NCBI GenBank assembly: GCA_036558745.1
Contig: DATBEZ010000003.1
Coordinates: forward strand, 196,352 to 260,351
Length of the DNA: 64,000 nucleotides
DNA from: Acidimicrobiia bacterium
GTDB lineage: Bacteria; Actinomycetota; Acidimicrobiia; IMCC26256; JAMXLJ01
Direction of reading: 5' to 3'
The notes beneath the pieces were generated by a model. That model had not been told where the DNA came from, did no database searches, and worked only from the letters and a program-made list of their open reading frames with translations. How positions within the stretch are numbered: position 1 is the stretch's first letter; every line of letters begins with the position of its first letter. Position numbers and translations under genes: made by a program. Shown in pieces: positions 743-22,568 of the stretch.

Positions 743-3700
743 CTACGTCGGACGCGACCGGTCGGCGCGCTGGGGGATCCGTCCGTACCCACCGGCGTGC
801 GCGGACGCGACGGCAGCGTCTGTGAGCGAACGGATGCGCGCGTCATCGTCGCGATCGCGACGGAGCGCGAGCGCACGGCCCAGGTCGAGACGGGCCTGCG
901 CGCTCCAGTACGGCGCACCGATACGCTCCGACAGCTCGACCGCCTGCGAGAGGTGCTCGATCGCGAGGTCGGCCTCCCCCTGCGCAGTGGCGAGGTTCCC
1001 GATCCAATGGTGTCCCGTGCCGAAGACCGCGCCGCCGACTCCGAACACGACCACGTGGTCCGCGCACGGCATGAGCAGCTCGGTCAGCAGCTGGTGCAAC
1101 CGGGTGTCGCACGCGTCGGCCACCGCACCCGCGAAGAGCGCGACCGCCGCGAGCCAGAAGACGTCGCGCGGCAGGCGGCTGCCGTCACGACCGAGGACCC
1201 GGTGGACGATGCGCGCGGCCTCGTCGGCGCGTCCGGTCTCGGCCGACGCCACCGCGGCGAGCGCGGCGCCGGCCCGGTACGCGGGCATCTCGTCGGCGGC
1301 TTTGCGCAGCGTCGGATGCATCTCCGCGAGACGTCCCTGCTGGTAGCGCACGACGAAGCGCTGCAGCATGTGCGCGCCCGGAGCCTGCTGGAGCTCCTGA
1401 CCGCGCAGCTCCGCCCCGCGCGCGAGCTGCTCCCCCGCGACCAGGTCACCGTGCAGGGTGGCCTGGGTCGCCCGCAACGCGGCGGACCAGTACATGTCGT
1501 GCGGGCTCCGGAGCTCGGTCGCCACCTGCTCGTAACGGTCGAGCCCCGCGTCGAAGTCGTCGATCCGCGCGTTCTCGAGCAGGTCGTTGAGGTGCAGTCG
1601 GCAGGCTCGCAGGTGCAGATCCGAGCGCTCGTCGCCCGTCGTCAGGCCCACCACCGCCTCCGACAGCGCGAGCCGTTCGCTCGACGCCTCCGGTCGGTGG
1701 GTCAGCCATCGGTGCAGCGCGAGTCGGCCCGCGGCGAGCGCGGCATCGTCGCCGAGCTGGTGCCCGAGCTCGAGCGCCTCCTCTGCGATGCGGCCTTCAC
1801 GGTCGGGGTCGACGTAGTAGAGCGCGGCGGCCAGACCGTTCAGCACCCGCGCCCGCCGGCCGAGGTCGCGATCACCGAGCGCGTCGAGCGCCTCGTCGAG
1901 CAGCTCGAGCACGACCGCCTGCGACGCGAATCCCGAGCTCCACGGACCCGCCGCAGCGACGGCGACGTCGGCCAGCAACGCCGGATCGCCCGCGTCCCGC
2001 GCGAGACGAGCGGCGGTCGTGTACGCGTCGCGCGCCCGCGCGAGCTGGCCGTCTCCCTCGTACGCGAGCGCGAGGCCGTACCAGAGGCCCGGGACGTCGT
2101 CGCAGCAGTCGGCCCCGAAGTGGATCGCGTGCTCGAACCAGCGGGCGGCCTCCGCGAACGCGAACCGCTCCGCCGCGTCCCGCCCCGCGTGGGCCGAGTA
2201 CCGGGCGGCCTTCGGCACCAGGTCCGGCCGCGACGCGGCCGCGACGAAGTGGTGCGCGAGCGCTGCGGGCGCACGTCCCACGTGCTGCATGGTCTCGAGC
2301 GCCTCACCGACGTGTCGGTGCAGCTCCACGCGTCGCGAGTCGGGGATCTGCGCGTACACGGCGTTGCGGACCATCGCGTGCGGGAACTGGAACCGGTCGA
2401 GATGATCGCCGTGCTCGACCAGCAACCGGGCCGCGAGGCACTCCTCCAACGCGTCCATGAGCTCGTCGCCGTCGAACGCGCACGCGGGCGCGAGCAGGTC
2501 GAGCGAGACGTCCATGCCGGAGATGGCGGCGACGTGGATCACGTCGCGCCCCCGTTCGGACAGACGTCCCATGCGACGCTCGACCAACGCGCGGACACCG
2601 GCGGGAGCGATGGTCGTGATGGTGCGCTCCAGCTCGGCGGTGTCGTCGAAGCGGCCCGACTCCTCGTCGAGCGAGCGCAGCAGCTCGCGGATGAAGAGCG
2701 GGTTGCCCGCCGTCACCTCCTGCACCGTCGGCACGAGCTCGACGAGTGATTCGACCGCCTCGGGCGCGGCGACCGCGCGCAGCAGCGCGCGCACCTCGTT
2801 GTGCCCGAACCCGCTCAGGTGCATCCGCTCGGTGGCCGCCGGCGGTGCGAGCGCGTCGAGCAGCTCGGCTGCCTCGCCGCCGATCTCGTCGTCGCGGAAC
2901 GTCACCACGACCATGACCCCGACCAACCCGCGGTGGCGCACCAGGTGACGCAACACCGCGAACGTCGGGCGATCGGCCCAGTGCGCGTCGTCGACGACGA
3001 GGACGAGCGGGCCGGCACCGGCCGCGGCGACGAGCGTCGCGACCGCCTCGTAGAGGCGGTACCGCTCCGACGCCGCGCCGAGACCACCGCCGGCCGGACG
3101 TGGCGCGCCGGGCGCGGGCAGGTCCGGCAGCAGCAGCTTGAGATCCGCGGGCAGCGACGCGCGCCCGGCCTCGTCGAGCCGGTCGACCAACGCGTGCAGG
3201 ATCTCCACCACGGACTCGTACTCCACGACCGGATCCGGGCGGCACCGTCCGATCACGACGGGCACGCCGCGCGTGACGGCGCGGTCCGAGAACTCCTCGA
3301 GCAACGTCGTCTTGCCGATGCCCTCCTGTCCCCCGATGAGCACGAGCCGGCGCTCGCCCGAGACGACCGCGTCGAGCGTCGCCAGCAACGTCGCCGTCTC
3401 CACCCGGCGGTCGATGAAGCGCGACGGCGCACCGCGCCGGCGTGGCGCGCTCGCGGCGACCGCCGGTCGCGGCGGCACGAAATCGAGCCCGGGGCGCTGG
3501 AGGAGGACGTCCTCCTCCAGGCTGCGCAGCGTTGCCGACGGCTCCACGCCCAGCGCCTCGTCGAGACGGCGGGCGTGCTCGGTGTACGCGCGCAACGCCT
3601 CCGCCTGCCGCCCGCACCGGTACAGCGCGCGCATCAGCTGCGCGGTGAACCGTTCGTGCAGCGGGAACTCCTCGATCGCGCCGCGGAGCACGTCGATCAC

Positions 3701-4243
3701 GAGCGCGTGGTCTCCGAGCGTCAGCCGGGCCTCGACCAGCTCCTCGAACGCGCGCGCCCGCAGCTCCTCGAGCCGGGCCCGCTCGGCCCGGGCCGCGCTG
3801 AGGTCGGCGATGTCGGCGAAGGCGCGGCCGTGCCACAGGTCGAGCGCGTCGGTGAGCCGGGCCGCCGCCGTACCGAAATCGCCGTCCCCGCTCGCGCTGC
3901 ATCCGTAGAGCACGAGCCGCTCGAACCGCTGCGCGTCCAGCTCGTCGGGCTCGACCCGCAGCAGGTAGCCGTACGGGCCGGCCGGAAGACGCCCGCTCGG
4001 CGCGTTCGCGTCGCGCTCGGGCTCGAGCACCTGACGGAGCCGCCCGACGTGCACCCGCAGCGCGGTCGCCGCGCTGGCCGGGGGCTCGCCCTCCCACAGC
4101 TCCTCGGTCAGCTGTTCGGCCGGGACGGAGCGATTGGGTCGTAGTGCGAGGAGTGCGAGGAGCTGGCGCGGCTTGACCCCGCGAAGCAGGAACGGCATCC
4201 CGTCGTGGCGAATCTCCAACGGCCCGAGTACCCGGAGCTCCAC
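743..4243 (-). CDS. AfsR/SARP-family transcriptional regulator (winged-helix + BTAD + P-loop NTPase + TPR-like C-terminus)
   Basis: ORF 743..4279 (1178 aa). Motifs: LRVLGPLEIRHDG...KPRQLLALLAL...ALRVHVGRLRQVL (OmpR-type wHTH); LDAQRFERLV...ALDLWHGRAFAD (BTAD); Walker A GGQEGIGKTTLL; Walker B LVLVVDDAHWAD; long helical repeat tail. Start moved to GTG 4243 (VELRVLGPLEI) because GGAGG lies 6 nt upstream. GTG 4279 is the longest alternative. Confidence 0.9.
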   Translation of the reverse strand: MELRVLGPLEIRHDGMPFLLRGVKPRQLLALLALRPNRSVPAEQLTEELWEGEPPASAATALRVHVGRLRQVLEPERDANAPSGRLPAGPYGYLLRVEPDELDAQRFERLVLYGCSASGDGDFGTAAARLTDALDLWHGRAFADIADLSAARAERARLEELRARAFEELVEARLTLGDHALVIDVLRGAIEEFPLHERFTAQLMRALYRCGRQAEALRAYTEHARRLDEALGVEPSATLRSLEEDVLLQRPGLDFVPPRPAVAASAPRRRGAPSRFIDRRVETATLLATLDAVVSGERRLVLIGGQEGIGKTTLLEEFSDRAVTRGVPVVIGRCRPDPVVEYESVVEILHALVDRLDEAGRASLPADLKLLLPDLPAPGAPRPAGGGLGAASERYRLYEAVATLVAAAGAGPLVLVVDDAHWADRPTFAVLRHLVRHRGLVGVMVVVTFRDDEIGGEAAELLDALAPPAATERMHLSGFGHNEVRALLRAVAAPEAVESLVELVPTVQEVTAGNPLFIRELLRSLDEESGRFDDTAELERTITTIAPAGVRALVERRMGRLSERGRDVIHVAAISGMDVSLDLLAPACAFDGDELMDALEECLAARLLVEHGDHLDRFQFPHAMVRNAVYAQIPDSRRVELHRHVGEALETMQHVGRAPAALAHHFVAAASRPDLVPKAARYSAHAGRDAAERFAFAEAARWFEHAIHFGADCCDDVPGLWYGLALAYEGDGQLARARDAYTTAARLARDAGDPALLADVAVAAAGPWSSGFASQAVVLELLDEALDALGDRDLGRRARVLNGLAAALYYVDPDREGRIAEEALELGHQLGDDAALAAGRLALHRWLTHRPEASSERLALSEAVVGLTTGDERSDLHLRACRLHLNDLLENARIDDFDAGLDRYEQVATELRSPHDMYWSAALRATQATLHGDLVAGEQLARGAELRGQELQQAPGAHMLQRFVVRYQQGRLAEMHPTLRKAADEMPAYRAGAALAAVASAETGRADEAARIVHRVLGRDGSRLPRDVFWLAAVALFAGAVADACDTRLHQLLTELLMPCADHVVVFGVGGAVFGTGHHWIGNLATAQGEADLAIEHLSQAVELSERIGAPYWSAQARLDLGRALALRRDRDDDARIRSLTDAAVASAHAGGYGRIPQRADRSRPT

Positions 4244-4312
4244 CCGGAACCTCCGTCTTCGAGGCGAGGGATCGGGCACGTTATACCGAGGTCAGCGCAT
4301 CGCGCGGGACTG

Positions 4313-4346
4313 CGTTTACGGCCCGTTTACGCCTCTCCGGTACCAC
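4313..4346 (+). promoter_or_regulatory. SARP-box promoter cassette A: CGTTTAC-n4-CGTTTAC-n10-TACCAC
   Basis: Heptamers at 4313-4319 and 4324-4330 (11-bp register), then 10 nt, then TACCAC at 4341-4346. About 200 nt upstream of the 140-aa gene and divergent from the SARP gene. Confidence 0.6.
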
Positions 4347-4545
4347 AGGACACCTCGGGGAGCGCCCGACCCGAGCGGTACGTCCGTCGCGTGGAGGGCA
4401 GCAGCGACGTCGGCGTCTGCGGCGGCCTCGACGGGTCGGCACGGATTCCGGCGGGGGCACGCTGTCGCCTTCCGCGCGACGGGCTCCGCCGCGCGTCGCG
4501 CACCACGAGCCCTCACCACGAACCATCGGAACGAGAGAGAGGACG

Positions 4546-4968
4546 ATGCCCCACCAGGAAGACCGGCACCAGGACGGCCAGCACCAGGGCAGGCAGGGAA
4601 CGCTCGTCGGCGACCCACTCAACGGGTTGGTCGTCGCGGGCAACCAGGGTTTGAAGGATCCGAACTTCCGCTCGAGCCTCCGAGACATGCACGAGAACAA
4701 CGTGCCGCTCGTGCAGATCGTGGAGAACCTCGGGCTCGACGGCGACATGAGCCCACAGGTGCGCCGGATCCTCGAGGACCTCGACCCCGCCGTGGTCGAC
4801 GGCATCCGCCAGGCGATGATCGACATGCTCGACCGTCAGGATCAGACGATGCCGCTTGCGTGCACCGTCACGCAGCAACAGCTGGACGCGGGAACACCGG
4901 TCGTCGTACAGGTCGTCACCACCGACAACAAGCGGACGGTCCAGGCCACACCTTCGAGCGGAACGTGA
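4546..4968 (+). CDS. hypothetical 140-aa protein (His/Gln/Asp/Arg-rich N-terminus), first gene of the SARP-box A unit
   Basis: ORF 4546..4968. ATG is preceded by GAGAGAGAGG. GC3 is high and the body has non-shadow composition (NVPLVQIVENLGLDGDMSPQVRRILEDLDPAVVDGIRQAMIDMLDRQDQ). No family recognised. Confidence 0.7.
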   Translation: MPHQEDRHQDGQHQGRQGTLVGDPLNGLVVAGNQGLKDPNFRSSLRDMHENNVPLVQIVENLGLDGDMSPQVRRILEDLDPAVVDGIRQAMIDMLDRQDQTMPLACTVTQQQLDAGTPVVVQVVTTDNKRTVQATPSSGT

Positions 4969-4993
4969 GCGGGCCCGCCGTGGTGCTGATGCT

Positions 4994-5767
4994 GTGACCG
5001 ACGCGGCGCACGACGCGCCGCGTCTGTTCGACCACCTCGACGTCAACGCGCTCGACGCACCGTCGCGCGAGTGCGACCAGGGTGCGCGCGTCGCCGCGGA
5101 CGGTTGGGGGCGGTTGCTGAACGACCGACTCCACACCTGCGCGTTCGCGGCGGCGGCGCACCTGGAACGGTGCTGGGGGTCGCAGACCGGCGCGGGCGCG
5201 GACCTCGACGACGGCGTGATCCTGCGCGCGTACGAGCTCGCGAGCGGCTACGACCGTGCGGGGCCCGCGACGCGCGACGTGGGCGTCACCGAGCTCGACG
5301 CGCTCGAGCACTGGCGGGTCCACGGGATCGGCACGAGTCGCATCGACGCGTATGCGACCGTCGCGCCCGTCACGCGCGTCGAGGTCGCGACCGCGATCGA
5401 GCACTTCGGGGGCTGCTACGCGGCGCTGGCCCTCCCCGTGTCCGCGCAAGCGCAGGACGTGTGGCGGGTGCCCGAGCGTGGACCCGAGGGGTGGCGCGCG
5501 CCGGGGTCCTGGCTCGCGCACGCGGTCGCGCTCGTCGCCTACGACGAGACGACGGTGACCGCGGTCGCGTGGGGCGCCCGAACGGCCATGACGTGGGAGT
5601 TCCTCGCCACCTACGGTGCCGCGACCTACGCCGTGGTCAGCACGCGGAGCTGGTTCGTCGCCGGGATCCCACCCGGCCTGGGCCTCGACCTCGAGGGCAT
5701 CCGCCGTGCCCTCGACCGGCGTCGCGGTGCTGCCTCGTTTTACCGGTCGTTTACGGGAGTCCCGTAG
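4994..5767 (+). CDS. putative papain-like (clan CA) cysteine peptidase, no signal peptide
   Basis: In frame of ORF 4856..5767. Start set to GTG 4994, 26 nt after the upstream stop. Candidate catalytic layout: Cys in NDRLHTCAFAAAAHLE (cf. papain QGxCGSCWAF); His in GSWLAHAVALVAYDE (cf. HAVxxVGY); then TAVAWGARTAMTW (cf. NSWGxxWG). Confidence 0.6.
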   Translation: MTDAAHDAPRLFDHLDVNALDAPSRECDQGARVAADGWGRLLNDRLHTCAFAAAAHLERCWGSQTGAGADLDDGVILRAYELASGYDRAGPATRDVGVTELDALEHWRVHGIGTSRIDAYATVAPVTRVEVATAIEHFGGCYAALALPVSAQAQDVWRVPERGPEGWRAPGSWLAHAVALVAYDETTVTAVAWGARTAMTWEFLATYGAATYAVVSTRSWFVAGIPPGLGLDLEGIRRALDRRRGAASFYRSFTGVP

Positions 5768-5770
5768 AAC
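5736..5770 (+). promoter_or_regulatory. SARP-box promoter cassette B: CGTTTTAC-n4-CGTTTAC-n10-TAGAAC
   Basis: Repeats at 5736-5743 and 5748-5754 (TTTAC cores 11 bp apart), then 10 nt, then TAGAAC at 5765-5770. The hexamer contains the peptidase stop codon (5765-5767). Confidence 0.5.
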
Positions 5771-5900
5771 GGCCACATCGTCCGCCGGTGCGGTGCAGCG
5801 CGCAGGGGCAGGACCGGTGCAGGCCGGAGCACGGCAGGAGCTGGTCATCGGGCCGGCGGGACGAACCGCACACCCGCGCACCGTGTGGGTGGTGCACCGC

Positions 5901-5940
5901 AGGCGGCGTGCCGGCTCCCCCCATTCCCGGCACGCCGCCT
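5901..5940. terminator. bidirectional stem-loop between convergent peptidase and SRPBCC genes
   Basis: AGGCGGCGTGCCGG-(12 nt)-CCGGCACGCCGCCT, a perfect 14-bp stem. Confidence 0.6.
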
Positions 5941-5950
5941 GCACGCGCCG

Positions 5951-6418
5951 TCAGCTCGTCGCGGTGACGAGCTCCTCGATCCGGACCAGGGTCTGCTCCA
6001 TGTTGCGGCGGGTCTTGTCGGGCGTCGGTCCGAGGCGCAGCAGCGCGCGCTGCTTGTCCTGTGAGAGGTCCCAGCTCTCGCGGACGCGGGTGCCGCCGTC
6101 GACGGGCTCGAGCTCGTAGCGCCAGATGCGCCCGGCCGAGATCCGCCCGGGCCAGCCCGGCGGGCGGGCCTGCCACGCGATCCGGCGGTTGTCCTCGTAC
6201 TCCACCACCGTGTTGACCATCGAGTACGGGATGCCGAGCTTCATCGACATCCCGAACGTCGCGCCGAGCGAGAGCCGCTCCGGCGCGCCGGCCTTGGCCT
6301 GCTTCACGGTCCCGGACCCGTCGATGTCCGGGTGACGCGACGCGTCGGCGAGCAGGGCGAAGATCGCGTCCGGCGGCGCCGGGATGACCCGCTCCACGGT
6401 CACCACGTCACCTTTCAT
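5951..6418 (-). CDS. SRPBCC-family (polyketide cyclase/dehydrase-like, START-fold) ligand-binding protein
   Basis: ORF 5951..6418. MKGDVVTVERVIPAPPDAIFALLADASRHPDIDGSG...RIWRYELEPVDGGTRVRESWDLS is a typical SRPBCC pattern. ATG is preceded by GGGGGAGG. Confidence 0.85.
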   Translation of the reverse strand: MKGDVVTVERVIPAPPDAIFALLADASRHPDIDGSGTVKQAKAGAPERLSLGATFGMSMKLGIPYSMVNTVVEYEDNRRIAWQARPPGWPGRISAGRIWRYELEPVDGGTRVRESWDLSQDKQRALLRLGPTPDKTRRNMEQTLVRIEELVTATS

Positions 6419-6509: not shown

Positions 6510-6830
6510 TCAGCGGTCCGGCCTGATGCCGGCGCGGACGAGCACCTCGGCCGGCACCCCGAACTCGCGCCACGTCGCGTACTCGATGCCGTGGGCGACC
6601 GCGTACGTCCGCGCGTAGGCGACGAACCCGTGCTCGAGTCGTCGCACCTCGCGGTCCTCGGCGGAGGGCGACCGCTCGGCCGCGCCCGCCTCGCCGCCCG
6701 AGAGCGTCCGCGCCCGGTGCACGGCGCGGGCGTCGAGCGCCTCCAGGTAGCCGGCGACCGCGCCTGTCGACCGGCACCCGGTGCTCCGTCCCACTCGACG
6801 GTCGACCGACCGTCCCCGCGTCGTCAGCAT
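6510..6830 (-). CDS. hypothetical protein, first gene of the SARP-box C unit; start uncertain
   Basis: ORF 6510..6908 (GTG start). GC3 is saturated only from about AVAGYLEALDARAVHR onward, so ATG 6830 or GTG 6794 are more likely starts than 6908. The C-terminal half (EDREVRRLEHGFVAYARTYAVAHGIEYATWREFGVPAEVLVRAGI) looks like a real protein. No family recognised. Confidence 0.5.
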   Translation of the reverse strand: MLTTRGRSVDRRVGRSTGCRSTGAVAGYLEALDARAVHRARTLSGGEAGAAERSPSAEDREVRRLEHGFVAYARTYAVAHGIEYATWREFGVPAEVLVRAGIRPDR

Positions 6831-22346: not shown

Positions 22347-22568
22347 CGCGGCACGGTAGTTCGCGGTTGCCTTCAGATCTTCCGGCGCCCGCCGATCTGT
22401 CGACGTCGACTTCGGTCACGAGTGCCAGCGCGAAGCCCCGGCTCGCTGGCCGGCAACCCTCCTCCACGGTGGGGTGCCCCGGGTGAGGACCAGGCCGGTT
22501 CGCGCGTCGCGGCCGGCAAGCGTGGGCTCCGACGACTCCGGGGTCCCGAGAGAGGCCCGAGGTGTGTC

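Follow-up and report, generated by a model that had tools for sequence, protein, structure and literature searches.

The window analysed here is a stretch of 64,000 nucleotides, with a G+C content of 70–76%, from a metagenome-assembled genome (MAG) of soil Acidimicrobiia (assembly GCA_036558745.1, contig DATBEZ010000003.1). Near its start lie two adjacent genes, one encoding a 140-aa protein of no recognisable family and the other a papain-fold Cys–His enzyme. The divergently transcribed gene of a large SARP-type regulator precedes them, and three repeat-containing sites and two putative RNA elements accompany them. The features that concern the pair and its regulation are the following (TSS, transcription start site; RBS, ribosome-binding site).

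743–4279, minus strand: AfsR-type large SARP, divergent from the operon, with Trans_reg_C, BTAD, AAA_16/NOD and TPR domains
4313–4346, plus strand: site P1, CGTTTACGgcc CGTTTACGcct (4313–4334), a 6-bp gap and TACCAC (4341–4346); predicted TSS at ~4353
4353–4545, plus strand: conserved leader ahead of the 140-aa gene, putatively structured, ~190 nt, with hairpins at ~4355–4374 and ~4375–4490 and then the RBS
4546–4968, plus strand: gene of the 140-aa orphan protein, ATG start, RBS GAGAGAGAGGA
4994–5767, plus strand: gene of the 257-aa papain-fold (C1/xylellain-like) Cys–His enzyme, GTG start, stop codon TAG at 5765–5767
5737–5770, plus strand: site P2, GTTTTACCggt CGTTTACGgga (5737–5758), a 6-bp gap and TAGAAC (5765–5770); predicted TSS at ~5777
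5771–5945, plus strand: conserved element resembling a non-coding RNA, ~170 nt, three hairpins, downstream of P2
6996–7029, minus strand: site P3, CGTTTACGggc CCTTTACAcct, a 6-bp gap and TAGAAC; predicted TSS at ~6989

A preliminary description of this DNA, made from its letters alone, had proposed a signal-less papain-like peptidase paired with an unfamiliar 140-aa protein under SARP control. Both open reading frames (ORFs) exist as it had them, with slightly refined dimensions: the products measure 140 aa and 257 aa (258 codons if the stop is counted) and the spacer is 25 nt. An exact-sequence look-up identifies the first product as HEY7133653.1 (locus tag VIB48_01180), annotated "hypothetical". 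The codon usage is native, as had been noted, since the G+C content at third codon positions is 0.87 in the 140-aa gene and 0.91 in the enzyme gene, in line with the remaining genes of the window. Pairwise dN/dS values against the orthologous metagenome loci are 0.22–0.41 for the 140-aa gene and 0.36–0.48 for the enzyme gene. Hence, both are real genes under purifying selection, and the partner is the more tightly constrained of the two. Hydrophobic stretches that could form a signal peptide or a transmembrane helix are missing from both proteins (maximal 19-residue Kyte–Doolittle means of 0.62 and 1.25), which agrees with the description of the enzyme as signal-less.

The enzyme, its family and its partner

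The enzyme matches no model in Pfam, NCBIfam or PADLOC, and its match in PHROGs, phrog_19005, is of unknown function. Its fold is that of a papain-like protein, as had been claimed. The AlphaFold2 model (pLDDT 94.3, pTM 0.92, from a 116-sequence alignment) has xylellain of Xylella fastidiosa (3OIS) as best Foldseek match in the PDB (E 3e-6, TM-score 0.60), with papain, Cwp84, cathepsins and Lpg2622 as further matches; the probability is 1.00 for papain, the cathepsins and xylellain. A search of BFVD ranks Peptidase_C1 proteins from phages and giant viruses highest. Xylellain is also the sole match of the family profile to PDB sequences, a weak one (E 0.036) that pairs GDC with GSC, GGHAV with GGHAV and tWG with SWG. 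The model presents the two-lobe fold of clan CA, with a Cys at the start of a helix (49–65, beginning at Cys49) and a His on a later strand (174–183, bearing His176).

The three motifs quoted earlier as a catalytic set occur in the order given there: HTCAFAAAAH at 47–56, LAHAVALVAYDE at 174–185 and VAWGARTAMTW at 191–201. A lack of conservation of the Cys and the His had been named as a possible refutation. Among ~270 relatives, Cys49 is conserved in 100% and His176, Asn43 and Trp193 in ~99% each, and all four are invariant among the members of the clade to which the window belongs. Alignment to the papain sequence with hhalign, which covered only the His–Trp segment, places His176 at papain His159 and Trp193 at papain Trp177. 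Asn43 lies six residues before Cys49, the same distance that separates Gln19 from Cys25 in papain. This makes Cys49 and His176 the candidate dyad, Asn43 the candidate oxyanion residue ahead of the Cys, and Trp193 the candidate counterpart of Trp177, i.e. the aromatic residue that shields the His in clan CA.

The affinity to known peptidase families is remote in sequence. The enzyme has no match to Pfam Peptidase_C1 (PF00112) at E ≤ 1, and one of 116 relatives matches it at an E of 0.014, below the cutoff. Peptidase_C39 does not match the enzyme either, and one of 116 relatives matches C39_2 at E 0.13. No I29 prodomain is found with Pfam; just ~42 residues precede the Asn43–Cys49 region, and the N-terminus is not hydrophobic. 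Short, signal-less C1A peptidases of the xylellain type are widespread and mobile, and occur also in tailed phages (Caudoviricetes; PMC10380794); a cytoplasmic enzyme without a prodomain is therefore unremarkable in itself. The window enzyme resembles these proteins in size (~250–290 aa), in its single domain, in the lack of a signal and in the short N-terminal extension that replaces the I29 prodomain. It differs from xylellain in sequence (identity of ~12%) and in having Val in place of the catalytic Asn of the NSWG motif; its family also has its own conserved N-terminal motif, a conserved Glu and no significant match to Peptidase_C1. We know of no partner protein or SARP control for xylellain. 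We take the protein to be soluble and signal-less, and probably a catalytically competent Cys–His enzyme.

A word-indexed search returned only seven close homologues of the enzyme. The wider family is very large: an exhaustive profile search retrieved 3,329 representatives (clustered at 50% identity) at E ≤ 1e-3, of which 1,912 at E ≤ 1e-10. Its named examples are all "hypothetical", and a scan of 116 members gave no Pfam family. A scan of GTDB species-representative genomes gave 557 matching stretches, and the best 80 loci belong to Acidobacteriota, Bacteroidota, Polyangia, Thermoleophilia, Planctomycetota, Thermoplasmata and other taxa. Actinomycetota are among the phyla in which the family occurs, and 181 viral contigs of IMG/VR carry it. 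In some proteins (P0165, P0022/P0028 and P0094), the papain-fold domain is fused to Phage_lysozyme and Lipase_3 domains, to an Rv2525c glycoside-hydrolase-like domain, or to DUF4214. Such fusions suggest that some of the family act on substrates in the cell envelope. In phage MW202816, a family member annotated "cysteine protease" adjoins an N-acetylmuramoyl-L-alanine amidase; in one prophage, a member is placed after the tail genes; and among 80 viral loci, 6 have a GH25-like gene just upstream of the member. Still other members stand alone on chromosomes, and no family-wide conserved neighbour was found in the 80 genomic or the 80 viral loci. A role at the cell wall or in lysis is thus plausible, though only for a subset of the family. 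The analysis exposes a very large papain-fold family that is unnamed and partly phage-borne, without a Pfam or NCBIfam model or a characterised member.

The 140-aa protein, in turn, has eight close homologues, all metagenomic. Its N-terminal ~20 residues are rich in His, Gln, Asp and Arg and vary in length, while the rest is highly conserved (76% mean column identity) and includes an invariant M-P-L-x-C segment at residues 102–106. The protein is acidic (isoelectric point of 4.7). A low-confidence AlphaFold2 model predicts a disordered N-terminus, five helices between residues 24 and 96, an extended segment and a C-terminal beta-hairpin. In keeping with the earlier remark that it belongs to no recognisable family, the protein has no match in Pfam, NCBIfam, PADLOC or PHROGs (one phrog, non-significant), and neither a sequence nor a fold match in the PDB (best Foldseek E 0.8). 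By the PADLOC models, neither this protein nor the enzyme falls into a known family of anti-phage defence or of toxin–antitoxin systems. The label "ParB-like nuclease" that JGI gives to one of its homologues receives no support from Pfam. No relatives came up when GTDB, JGI metagenome contigs and IMG/VR were scanned with patterns, which is weak evidence given the limits of such patterns, and the window holds no paralogue.

The 140-aa gene lies immediately upstream of the enzyme gene in all orthologous loci that were recovered (L001–L004 and L093–L095), and L092 has the same order with the partner gene cut by the contig end. In L001 and L002 the two genes overlap by 4 nt. The pairing is thus as tight as had been supposed. 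The suggested check of co-occurrence gave a divided answer: within one narrow clade the pair is obligate, and outside it there is none, as the enzyme-family loci compared, 80 from genomes and 80 from viruses, all lack the 140-aa gene. On this sequence evidence, the partner is a clade-restricted orphan.

The partner-bearing clade also departs from the rest of the family around the active site. It carries the substitutions G174L, G175A, E210A, D209A, T192A, D48T, G47H/R and G144A at positions that are 85–100% conserved across the remaining family, and L174, A175 and A210 are combined solely in this clade in the family alignment. Residues 174 and 175 directly precede the catalytic His and correspond, in the hhalign register, to papain Val157 and Asp158. 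In papain, these two residues contribute to the S2/S1 subsites. In our interpretation, these changes reshape a substrate pocket next to the catalytic His. Glu210 is also missing from a few members outside the clade that keep the Cys and the His, which argues against a strictly catalytic role of this Glu.

The SARP, the afs-like boxes and the predicted RNA elements

The divergent gene encodes a protein with the complete AfsR-type architecture: an OmpR-type DNA-binding domain (Trans_reg_C, residues 37–89, E 3.3e-10), a BTAD domain (114–259, E 5.6e-42), a central NOD (AAA_16, 288–457, E 2.3e-24) and C-terminal TPR repeats (732–762 and 1090–1148). In PADLOC it gives only sub-threshold P-loop matches. 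Its start is uncertain, either the GTG at 4279 or a TTG ~60 nt downstream called by JGI, and the orthologue in L093 is called at 1158 aa. The annotated start is covered by a 20-nt block (4274–4293, GGCACGTTATACCGAGGTCA) with 18 of 20 positions invariant in five loci. Within this block lie a minus-strand TATAAC hexamer and, 34 nt before P1, CGTTATAC, which imperfectly resembles the repeat. The block could represent the promoter of the SARP gene itself or a site of autoregulation.

The sites P1–P3 share a composite pattern of two 11-bp repeats, in which the first 8 bp are conserved, a 6-bp gap and then TAnnAC. The 64 kb contain it exactly three times, all within 2.7 kb beside the SARP gene, and 300 shuffles of the window do not contain it at all. 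Known SARP (afs) boxes consist of 11-bp repeats whose first 8 bp are contacted, and end ~6–8 bp before a weak −10 element (PMC10936776). The geometry of P1–P3 fits this description, with repeats 11 bp apart, an overlap with the −35 region and a weak −10. The repeat itself, CGTTTACG, was derived from the loci studied here, so that the likeness to the afs box is one of geometry. No sigma-70-type consensus promoter was found in the region, nor a −35 element.

The sites differ in how far they are conserved. P1 contains a perfect direct repeat, CGTTTACG-N3-CGTTTACG (4313–4331), that is invariant across five orthologous loci, and the site is conserved wherever an orthologous locus covers it (L001–L004 and L093–L095). 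P2, whose hexamer overlaps the stop codon of the enzyme gene, is conserved in L001, L002, L091 and L093–L095 and degenerate in L092. P3 was recovered in one other locus only, L092. It precedes two further genes:

5951–6418, minus strand: SRPBCC/START-like protein, 155 aa (Polyketide_cyc2, E 5e-12), convergent to the enzyme gene
6510–6830, minus strand: basic 106-aa protein (isoelectric point of 10.3), a conserved ORF upstream of the SRPBCC gene

The 106-aa protein has no Pfam match, and the more distant locus L001 lacks both this ORF and the box. The SRPBCC gene is syntenic in L001, L091 and L092; L002 has a 137-aa minus-strand gene at the same position. The suggestion of SARP-box control thus stands: the geometry, the contrast with shuffled sequence and the conservation in orthologous loci make regulation of the operon by the SARP a well-supported prediction. 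The SARP would bind P1, P2 and P3 and start transcription at ~4353, ~5777 and ~6989.

In L092, the degenerate P2 (within positions 1075–1452 of that locus; TTTAC to TGTAC and TAGAAC to GAGAAC) has a further effect. By the same change the enzyme loses its stop codon, and the read-through product, 383 aa long, overlaps the SRPBCC gene.

Independent support for SARP control comes from the closest outgroup enzyme, P0016 (45% identity), which has the canonical GG-His and the Glu. Its gene lies directly behind CGTTTACCGGCGATTTACG-N9-TAGAAC and an RBS, in positions 1–260 of locus L176, with no 140-aa gene. The tail of the gene that precedes it on the same strand aligns to SARP residues 1124–1168 (38% identity, E 0.014 in a single comparison), giving a layout that resembles the tandem of afsR and afsS. 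Within 1.5 Mb of fetched loci, the box is confined to the lineages of the window clade and of L176. Since P0016 has the box and lacks the partner, the link between regulator, box and enzyme is older than the partner. The appearance of the partner coincides with the pocket substitutions when the window clade is compared with P0016.

Two segments are predicted to be transcribed and structured. The longer hairpin of the leader (~4375–4490) is imperfect, with ~30 bp and a variable apex, and RNAalifold found 6 pairs with compensatory changes in four loci. The leader may serve as an attenuator, mark a processing site or act as a riboregulator. The element downstream of the enzyme gene (5771–5945) is better conserved than the proteins on either side, with a 75-nt block that is invariant across loci whose proteins are just 59–67% identical. 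It contains 1-nt indels and is therefore not coding. Its folding z-score is −3.27, with 7 compensatory pairs in five loci, and a covariance model detects it once in each orthologous locus and nowhere else. The last hairpin (~5898–5943, with the C-rich loop CUCCCCCCAUUC) probably also terminates both convergent transcripts. The element may be an independent small RNA, the 3′ untranslated region of the enzyme mRNA, or both. Neither RNA matches Rfam, predicted duplexes of the 3′ RNA with the P1 leader, the P3 leader or the 5′ end of the SARP transcript were not stronger than with shuffled sequences, and the leaders have no common motif.

A proposed SARP-switched enzyme–partner operon and its alternatives

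We propose that the locus is an operon, switched by the SARP, of a Cys–His enzyme and a binding partner that was acquired together with the remodelling of the enzyme pocket. We give this reading about an even chance of being correct. The SARP would be activated through its NOD/TPR module (a STAND/NLR-like NOD with a TPR sensor), bind the three boxes as a side-by-side dimer and recruit RNA polymerase to promoters that have no −35 element. This would jointly switch on the leader–140-aa–enzyme operon, the RNA element and the 106-aa/SRPBCC operon. Transcription of the first would occur only when the SARP is bound to the 22-bp box overlapping the −35 region. The enzyme would then probably be an active intracellular Cys–His hydrolase of altered specificity, and the 140-aa protein its stoichiometric partner, be it a regulatory subunit, an inhibitor or a specificity adaptor. 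We hold this role of the 140-aa protein with lower certainty; it is suggested by the place of its gene at the head of the operon, by the translational coupling to the second gene, by a constraint stronger than that on the enzyme and by an acquisition that went with the pocket changes. Acquisition of the partner would have accompanied the exchange of GG for LA and of Glu210 for Ala.

The AfsR–afsS system of Streptomyces is the closest model for the regulatory part. Both have a SARP with NOD and TPR modules, two 11-bp direct repeats over the −35 region, the same spacing to a weak −10 and an adjacent target gene, which in L176 is immediately downstream on the same strand, as is afsS. The differences lie in the targets, with the papain-fold enzyme, its orphan partner, the putative RNA and the 106-aa/SRPBCC operon in the place of afsS, and in the host, an Acidimicrobiia MAG where no antibiotic cluster was found nearby. 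By this analogy, the locus looks like a compact three-promoter mini-regulon, in the manner of AfsR activating its neighbour afsS, and not like a biosynthetic cluster. Its parts are known and their combination is new, i.e. a member of a C1-like family without a Pfam model under an AfsR-like regulator; its value is raised by the mini-regulon of three promoters, by the structured RNA and by a sister lineage without the partner. This would extend the AfsR–afsS paradigm beyond Streptomyces, with an enzyme, an orphan protein and an RNA as outputs instead of a biosynthetic cluster. It also offers an experimentally tractable AfsR-type SARP whose whole local regulon, three promoters of box plus hexamer, can be read from the sequence. 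The sister lineage, in which the same box and enzyme occur without the partner and with the pocket unmodified, provides a natural experiment on how a peptidase gains a dedicated partner.

Several observations weigh against the proposal. The position of papain Asn175 is taken by Val191, and by Val or Ile family-wide (hhalign with papain, HMMER with xylellain); we are therefore dealing with a Cys–His enzyme without the canonical third residue. Papain-fold enzymes include amidases, deamidases and acyltransferases, so that the label "peptidase" is provisional (PMC10318531). The clade has lost G174, G175 and E210, which are 93–100% conserved elsewhere, and its activity may be altered or reduced; the location of Glu210 in a substrate pocket is presumptive. 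The model of the 140-aa protein is poor (pLDDT 62.7, from a shallow alignment). The orthologous loci are all closely related, and their synteny alone is weak evidence of functional coupling. Finally, SARP binding, the TSSs and the RNA elements are predictions.

Known pairs of peptidase and inhibitor provide a precedent for the partner. Staphopain and staphostatin, SpeB and Spi, and the KLIKK peptidases and potempins all have the gene of a small dedicated protein beside that of the peptidase, in one operon. In the KLIKK case, where the peptidases are of several catalytic classes, the potempin gene is immediately upstream, as in the window (PMC9890683). The peptidases of these pairs are secreted, and their inhibitors shield the producer or act at the surface, whereas both window proteins are signal-less. 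The comparison with staphopain and staphostatin raised in the preliminary description fails on gene order and predicted fold. Staphostatin is an eight-stranded beta-barrel of ~110 aa encoded downstream, while the window partner is encoded upstream and is predicted, in its low-confidence model, to have five helices and a hairpin. We rejected this analogy, and no similarity of the partner to known inhibitors was found in sequence or fold.

Instead of a protein-directed peptidase, the enzyme may be a papain-fold amidase, a lysin-like peptidoglycan-peptide hydrolase, a deamidase or an acyltransferase, with the 140-aa protein as an immunity or holding factor or as an unrelated product. The fusions to Phage_lysozyme plus Lipase_3 and to the Rv2525c domain speak for this, as do the amidase neighbour in MW202816, the prophage with its tail genes, the GH25-like gene upstream in 6 of the 80 viral loci, the presence of the family on 181 IMG/VR contigs and the existence of papain-fold amidases and transferases (PMC10318531). 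However, the structures that match best are those of true C1 peptidases and not of NlpC/P60 or CHAP proteins, most contexts are not lysis cassettes and have no conserved neighbour, and the locus has no holin, signal peptide or wall-binding domain. The window clade has also altered pocket residues that the family conserves, so the ancestral substrate may not apply. We regard this alternative as unlikely.

A rather improbable alternative is that the 140-aa protein is a dedicated substrate or precursor of the enzyme, cut for example in TMPLxC, with the release or destruction of a small regulatory protein as an AfsS-like output. It would account for the co-transcription and tight pairing and for the invariant, extended MPLxC segment. 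The residues beside the His have turned hydrophobic in exactly the partner clade, which would suit a hydrophobic residue at substrate position P2 (Leu104). Moreover, the direct target of AfsR, afsS, encodes a small regulatory protein (PMC10936776). On the other hand, the 140-aa protein has no double-glycine leader pattern or other known leader or cleavage motif. Its N-terminus is variable and the remainder, including the C-terminus, uniformly conserved, unlike the precursors of ribosomally synthesised and post-translationally modified peptides (RiPPs). No ABC exporter adjoins the locus, no other transporter or modification gene lies nearby, and the fold is of the C1 and not the C39 type. The more specific idea of a C39-type leader peptidase acting on a RiPP precursor, which had been entertained at the outset, was discarded on these same grounds of fold, motif and context.

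One can also imagine a broader function in which an NLR-like (STAND) sensor has a domesticated phage-type enzyme, a newly acquired orphan partner and a structured RNA as its dedicated output, in the place of an antibiotic pathway. The locus would then be a self-contained switch that senses, transcribes and proteolyses in a stress, dormancy or anti-phage response, and the arrival of the partner would have re-tuned the pocket. This is a speculation to which we give little credence. That the clade protein is a catalytically crippled pseudo-enzyme, with no function beyond that of a binding scaffold together with the partner, seems highly improbable: the loss of G174, G175 and E210, the changes of G47, D48 and T192 around the active site and the lack of an equivalent of Asn175 would fit it, but every clade member keeps Cys49, His176, Asn43 and Trp193 under purifying selection, the few other members without Glu210 keep the Cys and the His, and several dyad-only papain-fold families are documented (PMC10318531).

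Genomic surroundings

SARP control had led to the expectation of an output in specialised metabolism or signalling. The first of these was not evident, as no biosynthetic genes occur within about 20 kb of the locus and the three boxes are all close to the SARP gene. The neighbours encode a luciferase-like monooxygenase, OYE, MOSC, F420H2 quinone reductase and TauD proteins, and further a PAS-LuxR regulator, CYTH-CHAD and APH proteins, an acyl-CoA ligase and an SDR. We therefore rejected a biosynthetic-cluster context, since these are redox enzymes and miscellaneous genes. Elsewhere in the window, at 22414–22528 on the plus strand, lies a SAM-IV riboswitch (Rfam RF00634, 101.8 bits, E 1.5e-17).

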